Below the pieces are notes generated by a model, which saw only the letters and a program-made list of their open reading frames with translations, was not told the DNA's origin and did no database searches. Below are positions 1 through 58,130 of a DNA stretch of 64,000 bases, piece after piece (the first letter of the stretch is position 1; the number at the start of each line of letters is the position of its first letter). The position numbers and the translations under genes were made by a program. The stretch is taken from the UHGV virus genome UHGV-1370141, one strand, 5' to 3'. The DNA comes from a virus.

Positions 1-711
1 CCTAAAGGAATAATATATTTATAAATAAATATATTATACTATACGTGTGCGCACGCACACGCGTATAAGGAAGAGATCTTGAGATCAGGTTTTTGAGAGA
101 GTTAAATTTTTAAGATCGATCCGAGAGACTTGAGGTCTCTCGAGAGTATTTAAAAAACCAAGCAAGATAACTACTCAACTTGAATCTTCAGTGTGTGAAG
201 ATTCAAAACGTTGATCCAATCACTTGATCCGTTAGTACGCGAAGCGTGAATGTTTTTTTGATCGGCACGGCGGCTGGCCGTCGGGTGGCAGGGTCGGGTC
301 TCACCCACCCCCGGCAAGGGGTCGTACGCTTTCTCAATCGCTCCACATCGCGCTAAACGGGGTCAGGTAACCCAAGTGTACTGGGTAGGGGTAAAAACCG
401 CGTTAAAATCGTTTCTAGAGCGTTTTACGAAATCCGGTTAAAAAATCACCAACCGGATAGGGTTTCCAGAGACAATCCAGCACCCGGTTTTGGGGTTTGT
501 TGCGGTTTGGGTTAAAATAAATTCTTCGACAGGGAATAAAACCCCGTCAAATTCTTCCTGAGAAGCTCTCTAACGAGAAAAACTCACCCAGGGTATACGA
601 ACGTACCACCTCGACCTAAAAATGCGTTAGAATCGCTCTGAGGAGGTCGAAGTTTTTTTGGCAAAAAAAAAATAAAAAAAAACAGGTGGCCGAAGCCACC
701 CGATATTTTTT
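1..711. other. non-coding leader region with no ORF >=60 aa; AT-rich 5' part, 28-nt alternating purine-pyrimidine tract (approx 40..67), several short inverted repeats, GC-rich centre
   Basis: No ORF in six-frame track before 712; palindromes e.g. gagagac-ttgag-gtctctc (approx 123..141) and tgaatcttca-gtgtg-tgaagattca (approx 181..205). Confidence 0.5.
662..700 (-). terminator. intrinsic terminator for minus-strand transcripts (hairpin ggtggc-cgaa-gccacc followed on the minus strand by a long U-run)
   Basis: Stem approx 685..700; A-run 662..682 on plus strand is a T-run on minus; lies just downstream of the stop of CDS 712..1836. Confidence 0.5.
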
Positions 712-1908: not shown

Positions 1909-3285
1909 ATGGCTGAACTGGTTTATGATTTTACCTCCGGTTGTTATCAAACCACCGGAACCCGCGTTGCTCAGGAATCGTTCGGTCACGACCCGTACTT
2001 CGACGACGCGGAAACCTCACCGGGTTTGTACTACGACTACGGTTTTGGTGGCTACGTACCGATGGGATTCTCCGTCGCTCACGAAGCCCGTCACGACGAC
2101 CGTTTACGTAAAGCGTTTGACAGCGTGTTTAACAAACTCGTGATTGATCGCAAGCTGGCGTCTAAGCTGCGTCACTACGTAAGCGGGATACTCTCTCGTG
2201 AAGGCAACGTGGAGTGGTTAGGGTCGAACCTCCTCGGTGTCCACAGCATTCGTTTTTTCGATTCTGACCGTAACCGTCTGTTCGATGAGGTGATTAACAT
2301 CGACGAAGACTATCTGTCAGAGTTGATTAAAGAGTCGCATTCCATCAATACCGATTGGCAGGTGGCGGGTGACACGTATAACCTGACCATCGTGTATCTG
2401 TTGCACCTGATGATTCCGAAGTTCGGTGACAAAGAGATTCTCGCTGCGGCTATCGACCTGGTGACGATTCTTCAGTTCAAATTTTACTCGAGTATTTACT
2501 ACCACTTCTTCCCGAAGCCGGTAGACTTACCTGCTGCCGAAGCCGCGTACTCGATGTTGTCGATGAAATTCGATATTCGTCGTTTAGGGAACTGGGGGTT
2601 GCACATGGCAGAACGTGCAACGTATTTCTGTTCTCCGGAATACCCTAACTACGATGCGGTAAAACGTTTCGATGCGCCGGATATGGTGTTGCGTTATATC
2701 ACCGACCTGAATACCCGTACGAAGCAAACCGTGAAAGACTACTACGCGGTGCTCGACCGTGTACGTCGTGAGAACGCTCGTGTGGTCAGCCAGTCGGCAC
2801 GTGTGGAATTAGACGGACAGTCGGTGATTCGTGACAAAGTCGGTGCGTTGGAAATCGCAAAACAGAACCTGTTTGATGCGTCTTACGATATCAACAATTT
2901 GTACAAAGAAGAGTTGGCGCGTGTGGTGCTGGAGATGGTACCGAAAGCGTCACCTGCGGCACTGAAAACGTTGCTGACGTATATCGCAGGACTCCCCATC
3001 GGGAAGAAACGTGATGAAGTTAACAGCATCATGGAAGACACGTTGTCTCACGCTTTTGACGAAATCGTTACCAACCGAATTAACTTCAATGATGCGGTCA
3101 CGGTATTACAGCGTATGCGTGCGTTGTACCAGGCGTCGAAATCGCCTAACCCGTATGTGTTGTCGTTGCGTTCTCGCATTGAGAAACTGGCAGCGAAAGA
3201 GACACACATTCGCCACGAGTCTGCGTTAGCTGCACTGCGTAACGCGCTACTGCTTTACTTCCTGATTCGTTCGTTACAGAAATAA
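1909..3285 (+). CDS. hypothetical protein (458 aa)
   Basis: Long ORF, ATG with GAGG SD about 6 nt upstream, followed by terminator hairpin. Confidence 0.65.
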   Translation: MAELVYDFTSGCYQTTGTRVAQESFGHDPYFDDAETSPGLYYDYGFGGYVPMGFSVAHEARHDDRLRKAFDSVFNKLVIDRKLASKLRHYVSGILSREGNVEWLGSNLLGVHSIRFFDSDRNRLFDEVINIDEDYLSELIKESHSINTDWQVAGDTYNLTIVYLLHLMIPKFGDKEILAAAIDLVTILQFKFYSSIYYHFFPKPVDLPAAEAAYSMLSMKFDIRRLGNWGLHMAERATYFCSPEYPNYDAVKRFDAPDMVLRYITDLNTRTKQTVKDYYAVLDRVRRENARVVSQSARVELDGQSVIRDKVGALEIAKQNLFDASYDINNLYKEELARVVLEMVPKASPAALKTLLTYIAGLPIGKKRDEVNSIMEDTLSHAFDEIVTNRINFNDAVTVLQRMRALYQASKSPNPYVLSLRSRIEKLAAKETHIRHESALAALRNALLLYFLIRSLQK

Positions 3286-3295
3286 AAAAAGAGTT

Positions 3296-3333
3296 AGCCT
3301 GAGACCCCGGTGGGTCTCAGGCTAGTTTATTTT
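3296..3333. terminator. bidirectional intrinsic terminator (stem agcctgagaccc / gggtctcaggct, loop cggt, A-run before and T-run after)
   Basis: 12-bp perfect stem between convergent genes 1909..3285 (+) and 3342..3581 (-). Confidence 0.6.
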
Positions 3334-3341
3334 AAAAGGCT

Positions 3342-3581
3342 TCAATGGGCCCCGGATACCGCTAATAGGTGGATGGTGTACACCAAGTTTAGAGCGTAAG
3401 TCGTTGATGTCCCTGCCACCATTAATCCGAATACTGCTACCGCCTGCGCATACCGCGTCGTACGATGACACACACCGTGCGATGCACCGTATCGTTCTAT
3501 CGATTGGTAACTGTGTCTAATCATTTTGTACGTCGCGATCCACGAAAAGAACACGAGCAAATAGTAAATTGGAGCCATCAC
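3342..3581 (-). CDS. small membrane protein (79 aa, two hydrophobic segments), translationally coupled to the upstream terminase gene
   Basis: ATG overlaps terminase stop (ATGA); hydrophobic stretches APIYYLLVFFSWIATY and AVAVFGLMVAGTSTTYALNLV. Confidence 0.45.
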   Translation of the reverse strand: MMAPIYYLLVFFSWIATYKMIRHSYQSIERYGASHGVCHRTTRYAQAVAVFGLMVAGTSTTYALNLVYTIHLLAVSGAH

Positions 3582-5686
3582 TTCATCCTCTGGCGTTGGA
3601 GAAGCTCTCTCAAGCTTTCCATTGACGCCACGTTTTGTGTATCAGTGTTAAGTTGAGAGATGAGGGCCTGAAGTCGGTTACGAGCGGCCATTGCTTGAAC
3701 CGGGTCGAGTAACCCGTGAGTCGTTCTCACTAACTGCTCAATTTCCCCCATCAGTTTTTGCTGTCGCGCTTCCTCTTCGAGCTGTAACTCTTCGTCCACC
3801 CCTTCCCGGTTTTCTGCCAAGTTACGATTACGCATCATCAATCGGCTGTTGTTGATCTCGTAATGTCCTAAGTTATTCCCAAGTAGCAATAACCACATCG
3901 CAAGTAACCAAGAAATCACAAGGTCATCGTGACCGGATGCTTTGTGGTCGATACGACCATTTTTCTCCACGAGGTTAAGAATTTGGTCGATGAGCTCTCC
4001 ACAACGGAGTTTATCGGCAGACAAGCGCAACGCGGTGGTGAATACCTCACCGTACAGTTTACGACGTTTCTCCTGGTCGGTTGAGAACCCGATGTATTTG
4101 CGGAATTTATTCCAGAATTTCTCTGCGCTCCCCACTGGGCCACGGTGATACTCTTTGTAGAGATCGTCCGTACGCGAGTAGTCCTGGGTGATTCGCACAA
4201 ACAAACGACGGTGTAAATCGGGTACCCGTGATTGCAATTGCAGGATAACCGCATCTGCAACGGATGAGCCTGTTGAGCGTCGTTCCAGAATCAGTACCGT
4301 GTTCGGATATCGCACCATAAAATCCGCTAAATGGATCGCGAACGAAATAACGTTGGATTCATTAACGGTAAGCTTACCGGCGTACTCGGCCGTGACTGAG
4401 TTGACGATGGACATGGCGATCGCATCTCGACCTACGGCTTCGGAGGTATCCAAACCGATGACATGACGATCTTTGAGTTTCATCATCATTTCTTCTTCGG
4501 TGTAGTACCAGTCGGTAACGTAGTTTTGTGGCGAGATATCTTTGAACACTGCACGCATTCGTGAAGCATTCATACGATCTGCATCTTCCGCTGAGAACGG
4601 CTTGTTCAGACCACCGGTCGTCCATTCGCCACCGAAGTCACGACGGATCTGGTCAGGGGTACCTTTGGCGTTCGCAATCATTGCCGCTAACTGTTCATCT
4701 GTGGTCCCGAGCTGACGGTGGTTGTACTTCACGTAGAACATGATACGTGGGACTTCTGCCGTGGAGTTAGAACGGATGATGTCAATGAGCTGTTTACGGG
4801 TTGGAATGTCGATATAGCGCTCATCCCACATAATCCCTGACGTCATCAGCTCGTACATGTACTTGCCTTCTTCCGTCGCTAAGTCACCAGGGGTTGTTGC
4901 GAATACGTTACCGTAAGGAACACCTTCCGCTTCGTTAATACGACGTGCCGCTGTACCGGATGCCAGCGCTGCCGGTAGAATGTGGTGTACGTTTTTGGTA
5001 AAGGGGCCTTCGTCCGAGAACAGACGACCAGCAGTAAGTCCACGACCGATACCGTTAGCGGACTCTGGGTCGTTTTGGCCGATACCTGTAATCAGTTTAT
5101 TACCCTGAGCTAAACACGCAAAGGTTTCTCGGTTATCTGGGTCATCAGGATGCGCTGGCCAGAGGTAACTCGGTAAACCGTTACGAAGTTGTTTCAGTTT
5201 GTTGATAGTTTCTTCACGCAGTGCCGGGCCTTTTGTGATAAGAATTGTTCGGGAGTTTTCTAAGAAACGAATCAACCACAGCAGTAAACCACTCATCCCG
5301 ACGGTTTTACCGTGCTGACGCAAGAACTCGACAGCAACGTCGATGTTGTTAAAGAAAATCCAGTACATCGAGAAGTTACCACGGTCGATACGGAACGGGG
5401 AACCGTACTTCATACCGTCCGCAGGCACCCTGACACATTCCCTGAACCAGTACCACGGGTTCTCAGCACATTCGATGGCGATGTATGCCTTCATCTGTTC
5501 TGAAAGGTTTTCATCGAACGGGTCTACGCCCTGCAACAGTGGGTTATGCAACGCCAGGTGAATATACCAGTGTTTGACACCCAGTTTTTTCAGTAAGTTA
5601 GCAAACTTGATAAAGGATTTGTTTGTTGTTTTATCGTCAACAATAGCGCCTGGATAATAACGCCAGTCCGATTCACGTAGTATCAT
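3578..5686 (-). CDS. terminase large subunit (ATPase plus nuclease), 702 aa
   Basis: Walker A-like FLRQHGKT; C-terminal RNase H-like nuclease motifs VIGLDTSEAVGRD and GHDDLVISW; ATG with AGGAG SD. Confidence 0.6.
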   Translation of the reverse strand: MILRESDWRYYPGAIVDDKTTNKSFIKFANLLKKLGVKHWYIHLALHNPLLQGVDPFDENLSEQMKAYIAIECAENPWYWFRECVRVPADGMKYGSPFRIDRGNFSMYWIFFNNIDVAVEFLRQHGKTVGMSGLLLWLIRFLENSRTILITKGPALREETINKLKQLRNGLPSYLWPAHPDDPDNRETFACLAQGNKLITGIGQNDPESANGIGRGLTAGRLFSDEGPFTKNVHHILPAALASGTAARRINEAEGVPYGNVFATTPGDLATEEGKYMYELMTSGIMWDERYIDIPTRKQLIDIIRSNSTAEVPRIMFYVKYNHRQLGTTDEQLAAMIANAKGTPDQIRRDFGGEWTTGGLNKPFSAEDADRMNASRMRAVFKDISPQNYVTDWYYTEEEMMMKLKDRHVIGLDTSEAVGRDAIAMSIVNSVTAEYAGKLTVNESNVISFAIHLADFMVRYPNTVLILERRSTGSSVADAVILQLQSRVPDLHRRLFVRITQDYSRTDDLYKEYHRGPVGSAEKFWNKFRKYIGFSTDQEKRRKLYGEVFTTALRLSADKLRCGELIDQILNLVEKNGRIDHKASGHDDLVISWLLAMWLLLLGNNLGHYEINNSRLMMRNRNLAENREGVDEELQLEEEARQQKLMGEIEQLVRTTHGLLDPVQAMAARNRLQALISQLNTDTQNVASMESLRELLQRQRMK

Positions 5687-5698
5687 ACAGACTCCTAA

Positions 5699-5722
5699 CC
5701 TCCTACCCTTGCGGGTAGGAGG
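5699..5722 (+). other. GC-rich stem-loop (cctcctaccc / gggtaggagg, loop ttgc) with T-run only on the plus strand; sits just 5' of the terminase SD on the minus strand
   Basis: 10-bp perfect inverted repeat between minus genes 5734..7374 and 3578..5686. Confidence 0.4.
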
Positions 5723-5733
5723 TCTTTTATTTT

Positions 5734-7374
5734 TTATTCGATGTGATGCGCAAGCATCGGTGACGCTGCAAGGTTAAGCGTATCGGTTGGAGTACGACGA
5801 ATCCAACGGATCACCAACGGTGCGTCTAACGGGACGCGGTAATCGATAACTTTCTTATCTAACCACTCGTCCACGCTGTAGGTGTAAACTTTACCCCCAA
5901 CGTGAATTTCGAAATGGGTAGGTTCAGGCGGTTCCGATTCGTTACGGCGATCGTACAACGGATAAATCGGTTCGTACAGCAGTTTAAGCCACTCTGCTTT
6001 CGAGCTGACTTTGTTACTGACGTCGATTTCCGAGTAGTTAACGTTGGAGTATTTGAATTCCGCCCATACGTTTTCACCGTATTTCTCACCGTCAGGCAGA
6101 TACTCCAGAATGAAGTTGGTGTTCAGTTCGTTACCTGGATTTACCAGTGTAATCGCAAAGGACTGCGACTGGATAAACGCACGGAACTTACTGTCTACCT
6201 TGCTGATGTCAACCTGGACGTTTAGACGCTGTTTCACACCCATCAATAGCGGGTCAAACGTGGTGCCCGTTGTGTAGTTGACGTGTGCTGTTGCATCGTA
6301 AACCTTACCACGCGTCAGGTTATACAACAGGAAGTCCAGACGATAACCACGGGTAGCATCCAACCATCTCGGTACCACAAACAGTTTCATGGAGTAAGCC
6401 CCATCAACCTGTTCGGTGACAGCGGTGTAGTTCTTCACGATGGTGTCACCAACGATATCCGTACCACCGTAAGTTTCCCCTTTCGAGAGTTTGTAACTCA
6501 GTACGCAAGGGAGACTGTTACCGGCGTTAGACGCGATGTAGAAGGTGTCATGAGAACCGGCGTTACGTAAACCGTTGAATTTCACACGCGCCTGGTCTAT
6601 CGGTAAACGTTTGGTACCGTCACTGTAAATCACATCACACCACAACGGAATAGAGTCGATAGGCATGTTGATAGGCAGTGTCAGCGTGGTACCGTCGTTG
6701 TCCACCAAGAACGGAGAAACCAGCTTAATGCCCAATACTGTACGAGCCGGTGTTTCCTGTGCCATCACCAGGTTGGTTTTGATGATGTGGGCATGGCCGA
6801 TTTGTACCACGTTACCTACGTCCGAGTACACGGCAAACATACACGCTTCACCGTTCTCAACGTCGGCTAAGCACGCGCCAGGTAGCGTTTGTTTAACAAC
6901 ACGTTCAGCGCCTTCCACCGAGATGGTCTGTACGGGCAGGTACGTGTATTTGAGTTTACCGTCTTTGTAATACCCCGACAGGATTTCTGCGTGGTCATCT
7001 ACGGTGCTCCCACGGAAGACACGTACACCGTCTACGTCAGGTCCTTCAAACGTCAACGCGTTATCCAAGACCATCGTTGCAGGCAGTTTTGAACTGTCCA
7101 CGTAGACACGGTATTTGTCACTTCGTAATGGGTAGTGGCCATTCAGACGTCCGTCCTGGTTGGCAACACCCACCCCACCCCACGGTTCAGTTTCCCACGA
7201 GGGTTTCGCGTAGTTAACGCTTACGACGATATCAAAACCAGAGGTGATATCGTTAACGATCAGATCTTTCGGGTTCGGTACGTAACCGGTAGGTCGTTCC
7301 GCCGCGTAAAGCTCCTCAGGACGCCATACACGGAAACCGCGATCCTTGTTGATAATGTCAGTTGTTAAGGCCAT
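5734..7374 (-). CDS. hypothetical protein (546 aa), possibly virion structural
   Basis: Long ORF in the terminase-proximal cluster; no recognisable motif. Confidence 0.6.
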   Translation of the reverse strand: MALTTDIINKDRGFRVWRPEELYAAERPTGYVPNPKDLIVNDITSGFDIVVSVNYAKPSWETEPWGGVGVANQDGRLNGHYPLRSDKYRVYVDSSKLPATMVLDNALTFEGPDVDGVRVFRGSTVDDHAEILSGYYKDGKLKYTYLPVQTISVEGAERVVKQTLPGACLADVENGEACMFAVYSDVGNVVQIGHAHIIKTNLVMAQETPARTVLGIKLVSPFLVDNDGTTLTLPINMPIDSIPLWCDVIYSDGTKRLPIDQARVKFNGLRNAGSHDTFYIASNAGNSLPCVLSYKLSKGETYGGTDIVGDTIVKNYTAVTEQVDGAYSMKLFVVPRWLDATRGYRLDFLLYNLTRGKVYDATAHVNYTTGTTFDPLLMGVKQRLNVQVDISKVDSKFRAFIQSQSFAITLVNPGNELNTNFILEYLPDGEKYGENVWAEFKYSNVNYSEIDVSNKVSSKAEWLKLLYEPIYPLYDRRNESEPPEPTHFEIHVGGKVYTYSVDEWLDKKVIDYRVPLDAPLVIRWIRRTPTDTLNLAASPMLAHHIE

Positions 7375-13824: not shown

Positions 13825-13860
13825 TACCTACCTCCGTAAAGGAGGTAGGTACTTTTTTAT
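13825..13860. terminator. bidirectional intrinsic terminator (stem tacctacctcc / ggaggtaggta, loop gtaaa, flanked by A-run and T-run)
   Basis: 11-bp perfect stem between convergent genes; same stem reused at 37529..37553. Confidence 0.65.
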
Positions 13861-14417: not shown

Positions 14418-14443
14418 TTTATATCTCCTGAGATCAAAAAAAT

Positions 14444-14480
14444 AAGGCGGTCATAAAACCGCCTTAACTTTTATTTTCTC
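14444..14480. terminator. intrinsic terminator hairpin (aaggcggt / accgcctt) with flanking A- and T-runs
   Basis: 8-bp stem inside the 200-bp non-coding gap 14418..14621. Confidence 0.5.
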
Positions 14481-16599: not shown

Positions 16600-16660
16600 C
16601 TTTAATACTCCTTTAGGTTAACAAGTCGAATAGCGTGTAATTCTACAACGCTCACCTAAG

Positions 16661-16675
16661 TAATATATATCTAAG
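16661..16675 (-). promoter_or_regulatory. AT-rich promoter-like motif (plus-strand TAATATATATCTAAG; minus strand reads CTTAGATATATATTA) about 62 nt upstream of the minus gene start at 16599
   Basis: Related to the ATAATATCTATC motif at three other sites. Confidence 0.25.
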
Positions 16676-16689
16676 ATATTTTTCAATAG

Positions 16690-16733
16690 GGCTAAAAATA
16701 AGTAGGGTAGTCTATCCAATGGATAGACTACCC
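16690..16733 (-). terminator. intrinsic terminator (stem gggtagtctatcc / ggatagactaccc, loop aat, U-run on minus strand)
   Basis: 13-bp perfect stem directly downstream of minus gene 16742..17293. Confidence 0.6.
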
Positions 16734-16741
16734 GAGAGGTT

Positions 16742-21670: not shown

Positions 21671-21692
21671 TCTCTACTCCGGAGTTTATCAG

Positions 21693-21711
21693 GGTGGGAG
21701 CGACCCACCCC
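21693..21711 (-). other. GC stem-loop (gggtggg / cccaccc) between the 1388-aa gene stop and the next SD; no U-run
   Basis: 7-bp perfect inverted repeat. Confidence 0.35.
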
Positions 21712-21717
21712 TTGAGA

Positions 21718-34676: not shown

Positions 34677-34689
34677 TACATACGGGGGT

Positions 34690-34710
34690 GGGAAACCACC
34701 CCCATCTTAA
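34690..34710 (+). other. GC stem-loop (gggggtgg / ccaccccc, loop gaaa) between the 2377-aa gene and the next gene; no T-run
   Basis: 8-bp perfect stem. Confidence 0.35.
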
Positions 34711-34721
34711 AGAGGTAGAAA

Positions 34722-37528: not shown

Positions 37529-37560
37529 ACCTACCTCCTTTCGGAGGTAGGTACTTTTAT
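37529..37560. terminator. bidirectional intrinsic terminator (stem acctacctcc / ggaggtaggt, loop tttcg)
   Basis: Same stem sequence as terminator at 13825..13851; flanking A- and T-runs. Confidence 0.65.
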
Positions 37561-38391: not shown

Positions 38392-38419
38392 TTTAAAACT
38401 CCATTAGATTAAACAAAAA

Positions 38420-38454
38420 AAGAATAAAGATTAGGGGTGCTACATAAGCACCCC
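38420..38454 (-). terminator. intrinsic terminator (stem ggggtgct / agcacccc, U-run on minus strand)
   Basis: 8-bp stem directly downstream of small ORF 38463..38606. Confidence 0.5.
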
Positions 38455-38462
38455 GTGAACTG

Positions 38463-38606
38463 TTAAATTTTGCAAGCCCCGCCTGAGCAGTTATCGTCTT
38501 CCGTAGTTGGGTCAGCACCCTTCTCTACGGTAGCTTCCGGGTCTAAGCCAGGGATTGCAAATTCGTCAGTTTCTTTAACGGTTTCTACTTTAACTTCTTC
38601 AGTCAT
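38463..38606 (-). CDS. small acidic peptide (47 aa) ending in Cys-containing CSGGACKI; translationally coupled to upstream small ORF
   Basis: Hand translation MTEEVKVETVKETDEFAIPGLDPEATVEKGADPTTEDDNCSGGACKI; ATG overlaps upstream TGA (ATGA); terminator follows. Confidence 0.35.
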   Translation of the reverse strand: MTEEVKVETVKETDEFAIPGLDPEATVEKGADPTTEDDNCSGGACKI

Positions 38607-46570: not shown

Positions 46571-47035
46571 ATGGCTGAAGAAGAAGTGAAATACCAGGCG
46601 TTAGATGGTGAAGTAGACGACGAAGAATCGCTTCTCCGCCAAACGCAACAAGCCCGTGTCAGAATTGTCAATCTAATCTTAGACGATCCTAATGCTCACA
46701 AAGACTTAAAGACCGTGGATCGTATCGGGACGTTATTAAACGACCTAGATAAGCAGATCATTTCTAAACGTCGTGTTGCCGCTGCCCAGAAAAACAGTGA
46801 AGCGAACCAAGACTTGGCTAACGCACTGAATACAATTCTGATGCAACGCGGTAACGTGAAAATAAAACGTCACGATGAAGAACCTGATGAAAATAATGGT
46901 TACCAACCCACCCTTCCAGACATTCCTAACGTAGAAATCTCGGAAGGGGAGTTGGCTCCGGTTGGCGAACAAATTGACGTGAAGTCCATTATGACTGCGG
47001 CGTTTGCGCGTCCTTCTTCGGACGAGCCAGACTAA
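46571..47035 (+). CDS. hypothetical acidic protein (154 aa)
   Basis: ATG with GAGGTGG SD; 3' end overlaps convergent gene by 47 nt. Confidence 0.5.
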   Translation: MAEEEVKYQALDGEVDDEESLLRQTQQARVRIVNLILDDPNAHKDLKTVDRIGTLLNDLDKQIISKRRVAAAQKNSEANQDLANALNTILMQRGNVKIKRHDEEPDENNGYQPTLPDIPNVEISEGELAPVGEQIDVKSIMTAAFARPSSDEPD

Positions 47036-47711
47036 ATAGCGCAGAATCACGTGGGTCGACACCGACCCACTCTGCCATAAACCGGATGTGTTCCTTGAAC
47101 GGATTCACACCATCGCGTTTAAGCTGCTCTACCGTCTCTTTTGTAAGTTCCGGCGTTAGCAGGGCAGGGTGCGTAATGGTAAAGCTAGGGATAGGCTTTT
47201 TCAGATGTTTCGCATTGAGTTCAATCCAAGCGAACCAATCGTACATTATCCAACAATCCCAAGCTGTCGCTAAACGACCCGGCGTAAGTTCCGAATGCGG
47301 CCACGACACTAACTCAACCTGCACCATATCGTAATAGATACGGAACATCTGCAAGAACGTTTGCATTTCTTGGTCAGTAAGATCAGTATACGGCCAGGTG
47401 TTAATTGTCAGCGTCGGTTTTTCGATAGGCGAATGCATCTCGATTTCGAGTAACATACATTCGAACTCGTTCTTCATCGTCAACAACAGTTCGGTGGGTT
47501 CTGCATTCATCAACGCGCGTTTATCGCGTTTCTGATATTCCTCTTTCCAATTCTCAAACCCCAAGACAGTCGCCCATTCCTCCGTAAAACGACGACGATA
47601 AACGTCGTAATCCATAATTTCCAATCTTTCAGGTTTGATGGCTTTGACCCAACCGATTCGGGTGTCAAACAACGCATCGATATCAATCAAAAAACGTCGA
47701 GAAAATCTCAT
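46989..47711 (-). CDS. hypothetical protein (240 aa)
   Basis: ORF. Confidence 0.5.
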   Translation of the reverse strand: MRFSRRFLIDIDALFDTRIGWVKAIKPERLEIMDYDVYRRRFTEEWATVLGFENWKEEYQKRDKRALMNAEPTELLLTMKNEFECMLLEIEMHSPIEKPTLTINTWPYTDLTDQEMQTFLQMFRIYYDMVQVELVSWPHSELTPGRLATAWDCWIMYDWFAWIELNAKHLKKPIPSFTITHPALLTPELTKETVEQLKRDGVNPFKEHIRFMAEWVGVDPRDSALFSLARPKKDAQTPQS

Positions 47712-48376
47712 GACGGATGGCCTATGTTGTTACCAATGTGCATCGCTTTCAGATACGCAGACCAGGTACGTGTTGCTTTCGAACTGGTACGTTCTGCTCC
47801 CGGCAGGTCAATACGTCCCTTACCGGTTTGACGTAACGATTGATAGAACGCACGTTGTAAAGCTTCGTTACCCCCACGCGCCCACAGAAACTCTTTCAGT
47901 GTCCAGTCGTGACCATCGGAGTACATGATGTACGCTTCTGGGAAAGATACACCAGATGCTTTAGAAGGACCAACAACTTGACCGGAGAGTTTATCACGAA
48001 CTTTGTCGTTCTTCGCTACTGCCATTTTCTTTTCTTGCATCTGCGTTTGACGACGCGCAGGCAAGCGCAATACCAGATGTGGGTAGCGGGTACGATGGAA
48101 AACACCCGTTTTCGGCTCAGTTAACCACAATCGCTGTTCCAGGTTCAAACCTAAAACACGACATAGCTTAACGTTTCGCATGTGGTCGATTTTAACTTTA
48201 CTGCCGACCGGGTTGTAAATCGGTAAGCCTTCACGAAGACGATTAAACTGTTCGTCCGTCATTCGAGCAAAGGCTTTCTTTGCTGCCTCTGCGTTAATCC
48301 CAGAGGGGTCAACCAGGCTTAAGATTTGTAAGGCGTAAGCTTCTGCTTTTTTACGCCGCGCTGGATCGAGTTTCAT
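47708..48376 (-). CDS. hypothetical protein (222 aa)
   Basis: ORF. Confidence 0.5.
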   Translation of the reverse strand: MKLDPARRKKAEAYALQILSLVDPSGINAEAAKKAFARMTDEQFNRLREGLPIYNPVGSKVKIDHMRNVKLCRVLGLNLEQRLWLTEPKTGVFHRTRYPHLVLRLPARRQTQMQEKKMAVAKNDKVRDKLSGQVVGPSKASGVSFPEAYIMYSDGHDWTLKEFLWARGGNEALQRAFYQSLRQTGKGRIDLPGAERTSSKATRTWSAYLKAMHIGNNIGHPS

Positions 48377-48650
48377 TTTCTACCGCCTTACGCAAGTTGG
48401 AAAGTGTCCCTGCTTCGAGGGTTTCAATCCAATAACTGATGTCGTCGGTGTTTTCAGGTACGTCGAATTTCACCGGCGGGTAACCGTAGTGTTCGAGTAA
48501 CTTGGAATAATATTCACCGACCTTTAAACAAAAAGATTCACGATCGGGAAAGAAAGTAGCGAAAGTCTCACGAAATGCCGCTGCTGTTTCCAGACTGACG
48601 CTGGCTAAACCTTCGCTTAAGCGCTCCACAATCTCCGTTTGATAACGCAT
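48351..48650 (-). CDS. hypothetical protein (99 aa)
   Basis: ATG with AAGGAG SD immediately after a hairpin. Confidence 0.5.
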   Translation of the reverse strand: MRYQTEIVERLSEGLASVSLETAAAFRETFATFFPDRESFCLKVGEYYSKLLEHYGYPPVKFDVPENTDDISYWIETLEAGTLSNLRKAVENETRSSAA

Positions 48651-48665
48651 AACGACTCCTTAGCT

Positions 48666-48705
48666 AGGGTAGGGGATTACCCTACCCTAACGCTTTTATT
48701 TCTTT
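48666..48705 (+). other. stem-loop (agggtaggg / ccctaccct, loop gatta) with T-run only on the plus strand, inside a minus-strand gene string
   Basis: 9-bp perfect stem; oriented as a terminator for antisense (plus-strand) transcription. Confidence 0.4.
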
Positions 48706-50192
48706 TTGGTGAGGAACTTCGGTTCCAGGCCGTCCACGGCCATACCCAGAATCGTACGGGCAGTTAACGTGCGTTTACCACCTTTCGTTTCTTGGTCTTT
48801 AAACATCCAGTATTCTACGGTGTTCTCCAGAATCTCATTCCAATCCCATTTCTCATCAATGAGTTTGTAGATTTCTTCCATCGTGAGGTGGTATTTAACC
48901 TCTAAACGATGGTAGTTGTTCTGCATGTACGCAATCGCGGCCGTGATTTCTAATGCCCGACGCAGTTTCGGGTTATCGTCGATCATGTCGCGAATCGTCG
49001 TACGCTGGAATTTAACACCAGGCAGAATCTGGAGTTCTTTAATGGAACCACCGCTACCGCTGGATGTAAATCCAAATTCGGATTTTTTCAGAGTGTCACT
49101 CAGGTAATGCCACAGGCTCAGGTGATACAGTAGACCCATCTCTTGCGAGAAGATCATCTGGAACTTCACGCCCGTGTGACCGCCTTTAGCACGGTACTGC
49201 GTAAAGGTGATAACTTTCAGGTCGTTAACCGACGCGTTCATGGCTTTTGAACGTGCGGTTGGGTAAAGTTCTTCGTTAACACCGGTCTGGGCGTTATAAC
49301 TCTGGTCTTTTTTCAGCTCGCCTGATTTTGTCGCAACAATAAACGAGTTAGTCAAGAAACTTAATTGACGACGAGGAATCCCTGCGAATTTGAGATCGTC
49401 GTTCGCATCGTCCAGCAGTTTCGCGTTTGCTTTCTGTCCTTGACGACCGCCCGCCATCGCCTTACCGGAGTCATCGGCCATCTGTGCAACAAAGCCCATG
49501 TAGAAACCACCACGGGCAAACGCAGACGGCCAACGGCTCATCATGTTCGATTTCTGTAAGGCGTCGTGGGCGTTGAGGATGTTCTGATCGGAATCACCGA
49601 TATCCGTTTTAGCGTGCTTGTCTTCCAGAGAAGACGAGTGCCACTCCGACAGGGAGTCGATAGAATACAGCCACGGGTCAAGGATTTCTTTTTGCTTACG
49701 ACGAACCGGGTCAAGGAACGGCGTTACACGCGTTTTACCAGACATATACTGCTTGAAGCGTTTTTCCACTTCATCACGAATATAGTCACTGTAATATTGT
49801 TCCCCTGGCATCACGTCAGAACCAACGAGGTTATAACGACCTTCGTGAATAAGTTCCAGTACCGAAGTTCCATCGTCAATACCGTTGGCGTGCATGGCAG
49901 AAATATAACCGGTCTCTAAGCGATCGAGGGCAGCAGACACTTCGGTATCGTATTTCGAACCCCACTCCGCTTTATAGCGTTGCAGGATTTGGAAGATACA
50001 GAAATCCAACAGTGTGGATTTGAAGGTGTTACCACGACCCGCGAAACCCATGATGTGGGCAAAACCACCGTTAAGGTAGTATAAACCATCTTCGCCTCTT
50101 TCGTAGTTGCCTAAGGCGTGGTCCATGATGGTATAAACGTTAAAACGAGGACGAATTACTTCACCGATAACTTGCTTAGTTGGGCCTGCCAT
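48696..50192 (-). CDS. possible RecA/UvsX-like ATPase (498 aa), degenerate P-loop
   Basis: GFAGRGNTFKSTLL resembles the UvsX-type Walker A (GPSKSFKS-like); otherwise unassigned. Confidence 0.3.
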   Translation of the reverse strand: MAGPTKQVIGEVIRPRFNVYTIMDHALGNYERGEDGLYYLNGGFAHIMGFAGRGNTFKSTLLDFCIFQILQRYKAEWGSKYDTEVSAALDRLETGYISAMHANGIDDGTSVLELIHEGRYNLVGSDVMPGEQYYSDYIRDEVEKRFKQYMSGKTRVTPFLDPVRRKQKEILDPWLYSIDSLSEWHSSSLEDKHAKTDIGDSDQNILNAHDALQKSNMMSRWPSAFARGGFYMGFVAQMADDSGKAMAGGRQGQKANAKLLDDANDDLKFAGIPRRQLSFLTNSFIVATKSGELKKDQSYNAQTGVNEELYPTARSKAMNASVNDLKVITFTQYRAKGGHTGVKFQMIFSQEMGLLYHLSLWHYLSDTLKKSEFGFTSSGSGGSIKELQILPGVKFQRTTIRDMIDDNPKLRRALEITAAIAYMQNNYHRLEVKYHLTMEEIYKLIDEKWDWNEILENTVEYWMFKDQETKGGKRTLTARTILGMAVDGLEPKFLTKKK

Positions 50193-58084: not shown

Positions 58085-58130
58085 AACGTTAAAAAGAAAA
58101 TACCTCCTGTACCCCGAAGGATACAGGAGG
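58085..58130 (-). terminator. intrinsic terminator (stem cctcctgta / tacaggagg, U-run on minus strand)
   Basis: 9-bp stem downstream of 58136..58591. Confidence 0.5.

Follow-up and report, generated by a model that had tools for sequence, protein, structure and literature searches.

What is the role of a hairpin that lies within a string of minus-strand genes, directly 5′ of the SD of the next gene, and that is followed by a run of T only on the plus strand? Two such hairpins, here called sites A and B, occur in the window, the whole 64,000-nt stretch of DNA analysed (UHGV virus genome UHGV-1370141), and the initial annotation had proposed that they may terminate antisense transcription or act as mRNA 5′ stabilisers or processing sites for the downstream gene. 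The layout it described was confirmed: both hairpins are present in the sequence (A, 5699-5722; B, 48665-48689), a terminator scan calls them solely on the plus strand (11 pairs for A, 10 for B), the flanking genes are all on the minus strand and are real by PHROG matches, each hairpin lies 2-3 nt upstream of an AGGAG SD on the minus strand, and the gene downstream of A is, as claimed, a terminase (Table 1).

Table 1. Positions of sites A and B, their neighbouring genes, and related hairpins in the window.
Feature	Position	Strand	Detail
Bidirectional terminator T1	3295..3324	both	Separates plus gene 1909..3285 from minus gene 3342..3581
Large terminase gene (TerL)	3578..5686	-	PHROG match
TerL SD and start	5684..5696	-	AGGAG 5696-5692, 5-nt spacer, ATG 5686-5684
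Hairpin A	5697..5724	-	Core stem 5699-5708 / 5713-5722; gene-sense loop GCAA
Plus-strand tail of A, CTTTTATTTTTTATT	5724..5738	+	Window lineage only
546-aa virion protein gene, upstream of A	5734..7374	-	PHROG match
Third tail-bearing hairpin, between tandem minus genes	14443..14466	both	Exact plus-strand tail 14468-14476 and minus-strand U-tract
Weaker U-less hairpin of the A/B class	21692..21710	-	47-nt tandem gap
Hairpin of A/B architecture between plus genes	34682..34705	+	45-nt gap: stop, GAAA-loop hairpin, SD, start
Embedded plus-strand gene	46571..47035	+	phrog_5894, SPN3US gp220 homologue; conserved in 11/11 loci
U-less hairpin, GTGGGTCG acac CGACCCAC	47051..47070	+	16 nt beyond the stop codon of gene 46571..47035
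99-aa protein gene	48351..48650	-	PHROG match (phrog_6181); vRNAP beta-fragment gene downstream
SD and start of 99-aa gene	48648..48662	-	TAAGGAG, ATG 48650-48648
Hairpin B	48663..48691	-	Core 48665-48689; gene-sense loop TAATC
Plus-strand tail of B, CTTTTATTTCTTTTT	48693..48707	+	Reverse complement of AAA AAG AAA TAA AAG
UvsX-like recombinase gene, upstream of B	48696..50192	-	PHROG match

Both stems are perfect, GC-rich, and 10-11 bp long. On the plus strand, hairpin A reads CCTCCTACCC ttgc GGGTAGGAGG from 5699 to 5722 and can be extended to 5698-5723; an A-U pair and a sense-only G.U pair account for its extension to 5697-5724. Hairpin B reads TAGGGTAGGG gatta CCCTACCCTA from 48665 to 48689, followed by acg and then its tail. 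The plus-strand stabilities, -20.8 kcal/mol for A (11 bp) and about -19.5 to -20.7 kcal/mol for B (10-11 bp), are adequate for intrinsic terminators. At A, CTTTTATTTT abuts the stem, so that 8 of the 10 nt after it are T on the plus strand versus 3 on the minus strand, where the tail is UUAGGAGUCU (3/10 U). At B, the T-run begins 3 nt past the core stem, or directly past the stem if this is extended across a 2-nt bulge, with 7 T in the following 10 nt versus 2 on the minus strand, where the tail is GCUAAGGAGU (2/10 U). Read on the minus strand, both sites have the order hairpin, 2-3 nt, (T)AGGAG or TAAGGAG, 5 nt, ATG. Folding of the 5′ untranslated regions, which had been suggested as a check, gave very stable stem-loops (z-scores of -4.5 for A and -2.5 for B) that leave the SD free, the AGGAG of TerL being unpaired in the centroid fold.

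Related phages were compared at both sites, with 14-16 relatives available for A and 11 covering the gap at B. Hairpin A is found in every relative at the same position, down to 69% TerL identity; arms of the form CCTCCTCCCC / GGGGAGGAGG occur among the relatives. Its 10-bp core is 100% paired, and three core pairs show double compensatory changes, in a count that excludes the CR5-group hairpins, which cannot be aligned with the others, and to which the L039 row of alignment A2 adds partial cells only. None of 500 shuffles reached the observed values of pairing or covariation, and slid controls at the site were ∼60% paired versus 90%. Each of the 11 gap-covering relatives likewise has a hairpin at the position orthologous to B, with its sequence turned over.

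The strand on which selection acts is indicated by several asymmetries. A first comparison, biased toward sense, counted 18 G.U pairs in sense folds versus 3 in antisense folds. GNRA or UUCG loops occur in the gene sense in 11 of the 14 site-A orthologs. A later, symmetric comparison gave sense-minus-antisense ddG values of -1.9 kcal/mol for B orthologs, -0.75 kcal/mol for A orthologs, and -2.0 kcal/mol for canonical sense terminators; the bias at A is modest, the antisense fold being more stable in 3/14 orthologs. Taken together, the compensatory changes, the sense-only G.U pairs, and the GNRA or UUCG sense loops at A point to a minus-strand mRNA hairpin as the selected structure. Judged from these alignments, the conserved and selected feature is shown to be a gene-strand mRNA hairpin without a U-tract, not the plus-strand T-run. 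The suggestion of a role in gene-strand RNA is partly upheld, as the conserved function, on the same grounds, on the retention of the site, and on the gene-strand U-tract that the B orthologs of SPN3US, phiEaH2, and L031 carry.

Inversions of the loop distinguish near-identical genomes at B, T1, and A, including an inverted loop of hairpin B in the near-identical contig L019, and because of these flips the orientation of the loop cannot be strictly constrained. Being DNA-level, hairpin-mediated events at these palindromes, the inversions speak for a cruciform used for protein binding, recombination, or replication and having no function in RNA. Such a role is nonetheless hardly credible, since the stems contain G.U pairs, which are tolerated solely in the RNA of one strand, stable tetraloops are biased toward the gene sense, the hairpins keep strictly to their positions with respect to stop codons and SDs, and they closely resemble mapped RNA terminators.

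The letters of stem A raise a different possibility, namely that its 5′ arm, ACCUCCUA, copies the anti-SD tail of 16S rRNA while its 3′ arm, UAGGAGGU, serves as a decoy SD, the hairpin tuning ribosome loading on the TerL SD 2 nt downstream. The CCUCC and GGAGG arms at site A are conserved in the SPN3US, phiEaH2, and Caitlin groups, and the true SD directly follows the hairpin. This reading is very improbable, however, as the CR5-group orthologs have an unrelated stem (GGUCUAGGGG), the stems at site B are not SD-like, and the decoy would stand 15 nt from the ATG, locked in a stem of -21 to -23 kcal/mol. CCUCC and GGAGG words are, moreover, general in the terminators of this phage (13825, 37529, and 58103) and in the phiKZ motif.

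Both hairpins belong to a larger family. The window holds 12 perfect hairpins of at least 10 bp versus 0.37 expected from Markov-1 simulations (maximum of 2), and all 12 fall within the 4.1% of DNA that is non-coding by the heuristic gene calls behind these statistics. Family members have stems of the type CCTCC/CCCTAC ... GGAGG/GTAGGG and a tail of the form C-T3-4-A-T3-4; most lie 4-10 nt past stop codons and carry the tail on the strand of the gene or, where genes converge, on both strands. The 9-mer tail CTTTTATTT occurs six times in the window versus 0.87 expected, a count reached in none of 100 shuffles, and every copy lies 0-3 nt past a strong hairpin, those of A and B among them. The A/B architecture also recurs with no T-run on either side, as at 34682..34705. 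U-less hairpins in compact gaps of 44-51 nt number four in the window and seven in SPN3US, where 19 of the 43 strong tandem-gap hairpins have no tail on either strand and two of the 43 have an antisense-only tail. The U-less hairpin at 47051..47070 lies inside a convergent CDS and is conserved in the window clade only. An Rfam search of the whole window returned no match above the gathering score. A sense-strand motif, AAATAAAAG, was considered as a promoter and rejected, since convergent genes also have it beside the hairpins at their 3′ ends, a place where a promoter would serve no purpose.

The plus-strand T-runs have different origins at the two sites. At A, CTTTTATTTTTTATT is the complement of a minus-strand A-rich spacer and the stop codon (TAA, 5736-5734) of the gene for the 546-aa protein, its first 10 nt being non-coding. 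The corresponding A-tract is retained in five contigs of 97-98% identity, reads atataacaag in a sister lineage of 85% identity, and is absent in other relatives. At B, CTTTTATTTCTTTTT corresponds on the minus strand to the three final Lys codons and the stop codon (48698-48696) of the UvsX-like gene, followed by three non-coding nucleotides; the FLTKKK* C-terminus is conserved and its synonymous sites vary. By this comparison, the plus-strand T-run is secondary, lineage-specific and non-coding at A and made up mainly of Lys-Lys-Lys-stop codons at B. A chance origin of the exact 9-mer behind hairpin A is unlikely, so that the plus-strand signal there may be selected in the window lineage rather than incidental. 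The proposal of antisense termination thus fares unevenly: the T-run on which it was built is not the conserved feature, yet both plus-strand tails match the terminator signature of the phage exactly, and B lies downstream of an embedded plus-strand gene.

Whether plus-strand transcripts would arrive at these sites depends on the neighbouring plus-strand genes. The embedded gene overlaps the convergent minus gene 46989..47711 and has no intergenic terminator because of this overlap; B, 1.6 kb away, is the first non-coding gap downstream of it. This gene is the likely source of plus-strand transcripts arriving at B, where plus-strand termination is plausible. Site A lies 2.4 kb downstream of the plus gene 1909..3285, but behind the strong terminator T1, and plus-strand termination there is doubtful. 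Hairpin A is the next element that plus-strand read-through past T1 would meet. In a search for plus-strand promoters that could feed antisense RNA, sigma-70-like hits fell below shuffle expectation. Late promoters of phiKZ amount to a TATG where transcription starts and cannot be predicted from sequence, and TATATTAC, presumably a phiKZ-early-like promoter motif, occurs once in the window, away from A and B. A literature search found no transcriptome for the window phage or for any SPN3US-group phage.

Sites A and B could on these grounds be dedicated plus-strand intrinsic terminators inside minus-strand gene strings, with B ending the mRNA of the embedded gene and A acting as a second backstop behind T1 for the plus gene 1909..3285. 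The exact tails, found in the window only beside strong hairpins, favour this reading, as do the conservation of the embedded gene and its want of a terminator of its own. The 10-nt spacer at A is non-coding and A-rich, in which it resembles bidirectional terminators in convergent gaps and differs from the remaining tandem gaps; A, B, and the hairpin at 14443-14466 each occupy the first hairpin-bearing gap downstream, in the plus direction, of a plus-strand unit; and 9% of mapped terminators in phiKZ and other phages are antisense to genes. It is nevertheless rather unlikely. The tail at A is missing from the 85% sister lineage and all other relatives despite identical gene order, the tail at B is confounded by the conserved Lys codons and stands 4-6 nt from the core stem in most relatives, antisense-only tails are as rare in SPN3US as stated above, and the hairpins bear the sense-strand signatures of G.U pairs, loops, and ddG.

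Two variants of the backstop idea were also considered and set aside. That A compensates for a weak primary terminator is contradicted by the plus tail of T1, which is strong in the window lineage and weak in relatives lacking the tail at A, the opposite of compensation. Backstops behind embedded opposite-strand genes as a general design gained little support: antisense-tailed hairpins of SPN3US are nearer to opposite-strand genes (p = 0.02), but with n = 3 and one of these actually a convergent gap, and the same distance test in the window gave p = 0.23.

The explanation that accounts best for these observations, and that is held to be moderately probable as a whole, is that A and B are members of the terminator-type stem-loop family in which the sense hairpin is conserved and the T-run is secondary. 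The two sites are not a special class but an ordinary regulatory element of a jumbo phage. The conserved arrangement is a sense hairpin 4-13 nt past the upstream stop and 2-3 nt before the next SD, with no U-tract, and it would most probably act as a leaky terminator or attenuator, as a hairpin protecting the 3′ end, or as both. The upstream message (virion structural proteins at A, the UvsX-like recombinase at B) would then exceed the downstream one (TerL; the small protein and vRNAP beta fragment), with read-through still allowed, since a promoter would not fit into the gap. For bacterial RNA polymerase, however, stem-loops that lack a U-tract are poor intrinsic terminators, and this counts against the explanation, as do the modest sense bias at A, the loop flips, and the exact 9-mer tail at A. 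An RNA polymerase arriving on the plus strand would also be stopped at A or B, because hairpin and tail exactly match the terminator signature of the phage on that strand, an effect that is probably relevant at B and probably of little consequence at A.

A stabilising role at the 5′ end, the other function initially proposed, would have the minus-strand RNA cut in the upstream A/U-rich stretch, for example by RNase E, so that the hairpin becomes a 5′-terminal stem-loop protecting the message of TerL or the 99-aa gene with its SD accessible. Stem-loops of this ompA type are an established class of stabilisers in E. coli, and the layout of a single-stranded A-rich segment, a very stable stem-loop, 2-3 nt, and a free SD suits such a role, as does the conservation of the stem-loop at A in all relatives. 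This is quite improbable here, as conservation at A does not extend to the A-rich segment, which comprises just 4 non-coding nt at B, while the same type of hairpin serves as ordinary 3′ terminators with U-tracts, with which B orthologs interconvert. A T7-type processing site for RNase III was rejected, as the stems, perfect and of 10-12 bp, are too short; RNase III sites have a duplex of at least about 20 bp, in most cases interrupted by an internal loop.

Two further readings are, even jointly, improbable. The polarity of terminators may be evolutionarily switchable at fixed sites: the orthologous hairpin at site B has a gene-strand U-tract in SPN3US and phiEaH2, none on either strand in Huxley-like phages, and one on the opposite strand in the window lineage. 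Hairpin-mediated loop flips are frequent at these palindromes. Alternatively, the U-less hairpins in gaps of 44-51 nt could be a distinct attenuation or RNA-stability signal rather than decayed terminators, one that could be read by the multisubunit RNA polymerases of the phage or by a phage factor.

For annotation of SPN3US/phiEaH2-like jumbo phages, the consequence is that terminator predictors will label A and B as plus-strand terminators inside minus-strand operons. In SPN3US/phiEaH2-like genomes, one example of the U-less gene-strand design is seen for roughly every 15-35 kb. If these hairpins are attenuators or stability elements, they would help to explain how genomes so densely packed and poor in promoters express neighbouring genes unequally, such as those for structural proteins and terminase. 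The value of these findings lies in annotation and engineering, and they otherwise pose no challenge to current understanding.

Several known systems bear comparison with A and B. The REP elements of malEFG and the hairpins of the puf operon are intercistronic mRNA stabilisers in polycistronic operons, and A and B likewise are stable stem-loops without a U-tract between two cistrons of one transcript, in a setting that fits more upstream than downstream product (structural proteins versus terminase). Unlike REP-type elements, A and B are single stems that clearly share ancestry or design with the true terminators of the phage. Bidirectional intrinsic terminators are approached by A, which has the A-tract and hairpin half, and by the B orthologs of SPN3US and phiEaH2, which have the full order of A-tract, hairpin, and U-tract, whereas A and B in the window lack a gene-strand U-tract and their flanking genes are tandem, not convergent. 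The 5′-UTR attenuators of phiKZ and 201phi2-1 (PMC10914365; PMC11512511) are also terminator-like hairpins directly upstream of a late or structural gene whose expression rests on read-through, and attenuating terminators with read-through are found in phiKZ and other phages; the hairpins of phiKZ and 201phi2-1 lie downstream of a promoter that, like their 3′ ends, has been mapped, whereas at A and B the U-tract is missing.

A further parallel is the terminator of phiKZ, for which the motif BCCYCCCC-HWWD-GGGRRGG-BYTTATKYYGT was mapped experimentally (Putzeys et al. 2024, PMC10914365; also 201phi2-1, PMC11512511). The window phage group infects enterobacteria and is only distantly related to phiKZ. 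The TTAT or U tail is missing from A and B on the gene strand, its place being occupied by the SD; the YTTAT-type tail is found instead on the opposite, plus strand at both sites, as CTTTTATTT. The stem at A nonetheless has the phiKZ form (CCTCCTACCC / GGGTAGGAGG, with a 4-nt loop), and that at B has it only in part, since its arms, GGGTAGGG / CCCTACCC, place the purine arm first. The family as a whole shares with phiKZ-type terminators a stem rich in pyrimidines in its 5′ arm (CC(Y)CC) and in purines in its 3′ arm (GG(R)GG), in most cases with a tetraloop, a T-rich tail broken by a single A (TTAT), and a placement just past stop codons, bidirectional between convergent genes and in a minority of cases antisense to genes.

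The 64-kb window comes from a jumbo phage and shares 97-98% identity with IMG/VR contig 3300014543_000002 and several metagenome contigs of ~225 kb, and ~76% DNA identity with the Erwinia phages phiEaH2, Stratton, and Asesino and with the Salmonella SPN3US group. Phages of the phiEaH2/SPN3US type are related to phiKZ and have genes for multisubunit RNA polymerases of their own, both virion and non-virion (PMC7598289). Hairpins are abundant in the window well beyond chance, with 12 perfect stems of at least 10 bp compared with 0.37 expected, all 12 of them in the 4.1% of the DNA that is non-coding. The initial annotation singled out two hairpins, A and B, as lying between minus-strand genes and directly 5′ of an SD, with T-runs on the plus strand alone, and this description was borne out. 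Both hairpins are present (fold z-scores of -4.5 for A and -2.5 for B), the consensus scan reports them only on the plus strand (8 versus 3 T after the stem on the plus and minus strands at A, 7 versus 2 at B), PHROG matches confirm the flanking genes as real, and AGGAG/TAAGGAG follows within 2-3 nt on the minus strand, with the ATG next.

Hairpins A and B and other features discussed in the text
Feature	Position	Strand	Description
Weaker hairpin	683-702		Tail on gene strand
Terminator T1	3295..3324		Bidirectional; between plus gene 1909..3285 and minus gene 3342..3581
Hairpin A	5699-5722 (extendable to 5698-5723)		Plus-strand sequence CCTCCTACCC-ttgc-GGGTAGGAGG, then CTTTTATTTTTTATT; 47-nt compact gap
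Genes flanking A	5734..7374; 3578..5686	-	546-aa virion protein (phrog_3430); large terminase, TerL (phrog_2)
Tandem minus-gene hairpin	14443-14466		T-runs on both strands, 14435-14442 (-) and 14468-14476 (+)
U-less hairpin	21692-21710	-	47-nt tandem gap (21671-21717); stop, hairpin, SD, start
U-less hairpin	34682-34705	+	GAAA loop; 45-nt tandem gap (34677-34721) between 2377-aa and 733-aa plus-strand genes; stop, hairpin, SD, start
Hairpin 3′ of gene 46571..47035	47051-47070		8 bp, GC-rich; 16 nt after stop; no T-run
Hairpin B	48665-48689		TAGGGTAGGG-gatta-CCCTACCCTA, then acg-CTTTTATTTCTTTTT; 45-nt compact gap
Genes flanking B	48696..50192; 48351..48650	-	UvsX-like recombinase (phrog_97); 99-aa protein (phrog_6181), then vRNAP beta fragment (phrog_3233)
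Loop flip at B	48675-48679		Gene-sense TAATC in the window, GATTA in near-identical L019
Loop flips between related phage sequences			L021 vs L025 (B), TAAT/ATTA; L004 vs L005 (T1 ortholog), GTTA/TAAC; L016 vs L014/L015 (site A), GCAA/TTGC

About 15 strong hairpins occur in the window, five of which lie in convergent-gene gaps and carry a T-rich tail on each strand. Tandem minus-strand gaps hold eight of the strongest, 4-10 nt 3′ of the stop codon, with tails that are clearly on the gene strand in five, weak in one, marginally biased in one (53276), and on both strands in one (14443-14466). The family shares stem words (CCTCC/CCCTAC ... GGAGG/GTAGGG) and a C-T(3-4)-A-T(3-4) tail, and six exact copies of the tail 9-mer CTTTTATTT are present against 0.87 expected, each lying 0-3 nt past a family hairpin; A and B account for two of the six. 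These stem words and tails resemble the motif of mapped phiKZ intrinsic terminators, BCCYCCCC-HWWD-GGGRRGG-BYTTATKYYGT (PMC10914365). Because their stems, tails, and CTTTTATTT match the phage's own terminator family, A and B carry its full signature on the plus strand, in line with the first reading of them as plus-strand terminator-like elements. In many stems (such as 13825-13851, 37529-37552, 58103-58130, and 5699-5722), an anti-SD-like word (CCUCC, ACCUCCU) pairs with an SD-like word (GGAGG), as do the CCYCCCC/GGGRRGG arms in phiKZ; this may be no more than a bias toward stable purine/pyrimidine arms. The plus tail of hairpin 14443-14466 is also an exact CTTTTATTT and overlaps the AAA-TAA of a 56-aa ORF without a PHROG match; the hairpin lies 0.6 kb downstream, in the plus direction, of the terminator of the tail-sheath operon.

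A plus-strand polymerase arriving at A or B would meet a consensus terminator, yet the suggestion that the hairpins terminate antisense transcription fares differently at the two sites. At B, plus-strand termination probably matters. Gene 46571..47035 (phrog_5894; SPN3US gp220), an embedded plus-strand gene, is real and kept in 11 of 11 loci; it overlaps its convergent neighbor and thus has no intergenic terminator. Because the three minus genes that come next also overlap each other, gap B is the first non-coding position downstream. The hairpin just 3′ of gene 46571..47035 lies within the CDS of the convergent 240-aa gene and is conserved within the clade of the window, and outside it only loosely. 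At A, a plus-strand function is doubtful because the nearest plus gene (1909..3285) already ends at T1, which has a strong plus tail in the window lineage, and the A tail is missing from relatives in which T1 is weaker. A genome-wide test of whether antisense-tailed hairpins follow embedded opposite-strand genes gave weak support.

The T-runs were further compared across orthologous intergenic regions of 14-16 related phages and contigs. At A, the corresponding gene-sense A-run 5′ of the hairpin is not conserved, being confined to the window and five contigs of 97-98% identity; an 85% sister lineage has atataacaag in its place, and all other relatives lack it. At B, the T-run corresponds on the complementary strand to AAA AAG AAA TAA together with three non-coding bases. 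Every relative retains the encoded FLTKKK* C-terminus, with variation at its synonymous sites, so that protein coding largely accounts for T-richness here.

The hairpins themselves are conserved. The layout of site A is shared by all relatives, even at 69% TerL identity: a stop codon, 7-13 nt, a tetraloop-capped 10-bp stem, 2 nt, SD, 4-5 nt, and ATG, with 6-7 nt between stem and SD and a longer SD-ATG spacing in the CR5 group. Paired substitutions run through the stem (CCTCCTACCC, CCTCCTCTCC, CCTCCACCCC, CCTCCTCCCC), and the CR5 group has a stem of unrelated sequence, GGTCTAGGGG, at this position. In the alignable set, 100% of cells in the 10-bp core are paired, with double compensatory changes at three core pairs and a U.G intermediate at one. 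Neither the pairing nor the covariation observed was reached in any of 500 shuffles, and pairing fell from 90% to about 60% when the partners were slid. At B, a hairpin occupies the same position in all relatives that cover the gap, its sequence turned over. In SPN3US, phiEaH2, and the related sequence L031 a gene-strand U-tract follows the hairpin, which makes it a canonical sense terminator; the window resembles Huxley-like and other phages, where the hairpin abuts the SD without a U-tract.

A G.U pair on one strand is an A.C mismatch on the other, and G.U pairs number 18 in sense folds versus 3 in antisense folds. Gene-sense loops are GNRA or UUCG in 11 of 14 site-A orthologs. In symmetric comparisons, folding in sense is favored over folding in antisense by 0.75 kcal/mol at A and by 1.9 kcal/mol on average at B; the gain at B equals that of the window's canonical sense terminators (2.0 kcal/mol). 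Together, the G.U bias, loops, and stability gain argue that the conserved, selected object at both sites is the minus-strand mRNA hairpin.

This U-less design is not confined to A and B, as the window has four such hairpins in compact gaps. Among 43 strong tandem-gap hairpins in the complete SPN3US genome, 19 lack a T-rich tail on both strands, 21 carry one on the gene strand, and just 2 have one on the antisense strand alone; seven lie in 44-51-nt gaps, the site-A ortholog among them. A and B are placed and built like the phage's terminators, except that the tail is missing, probably because the ribosome-binding site of the next gene fills that space. The gap is too short to fit a promoter ahead of the downstream gene. 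They most likely act as leaky terminators or attenuators and/or 3′-end-protecting hairpins, and message levels would thereby drop from upstream to downstream cistrons, from virion proteins to terminase and from UvsX to the genes after it. The phages phiKZ and 201phi2-1 have documented attenuating terminators that permit read-through (PMC10914365; PMC11512511).

Several palindrome loops are inverted between near-identical genomes with collinear flanks, and these flips look like a recurrent, hairpin-mediated micro-inversion polymorphism ("flip-flop") at terminator palindromes. Elsewhere, about 700 bp (1-711) lack an ORF of at least 55 aa, carry inverted repeats (10-37, 40-67, 122-142, and 180-206) upstream of terminator 683-702, and could be a regulatory or small-gene region. 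An unusually long, AT-rich gap of 142 nt (16600-16741) after terminator 16703-16735 holds the window's single copy of TATATTAC (16660-16667, minus strand), which may resemble the phiKZ early-promoter core. The 211-nt "gap" at 38392-38602, upstream of hairpin 38434-38454, is coding-like and Glu/Lys/Thr-rich, and is probably a C-terminal extension or uncalled small ORF instead of non-coding DNA.

Nothing in Rfam matches. In the least ordinary reading, which is unlikely, terminator polarity may switch between lineages at fixed hairpin sites, and the U-less hairpins may be a distinct phage-polymerase signal. The nearest functional analogue of the U-less state is found in REP and puf hairpins, which are intercistronic mRNA stabilizers. 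The closest known kind for A and B is the conserved terminator family of the phiKZ type, which already includes terminators antisense to genes as well as bidirectional and attenuating ones (PMC10914365).
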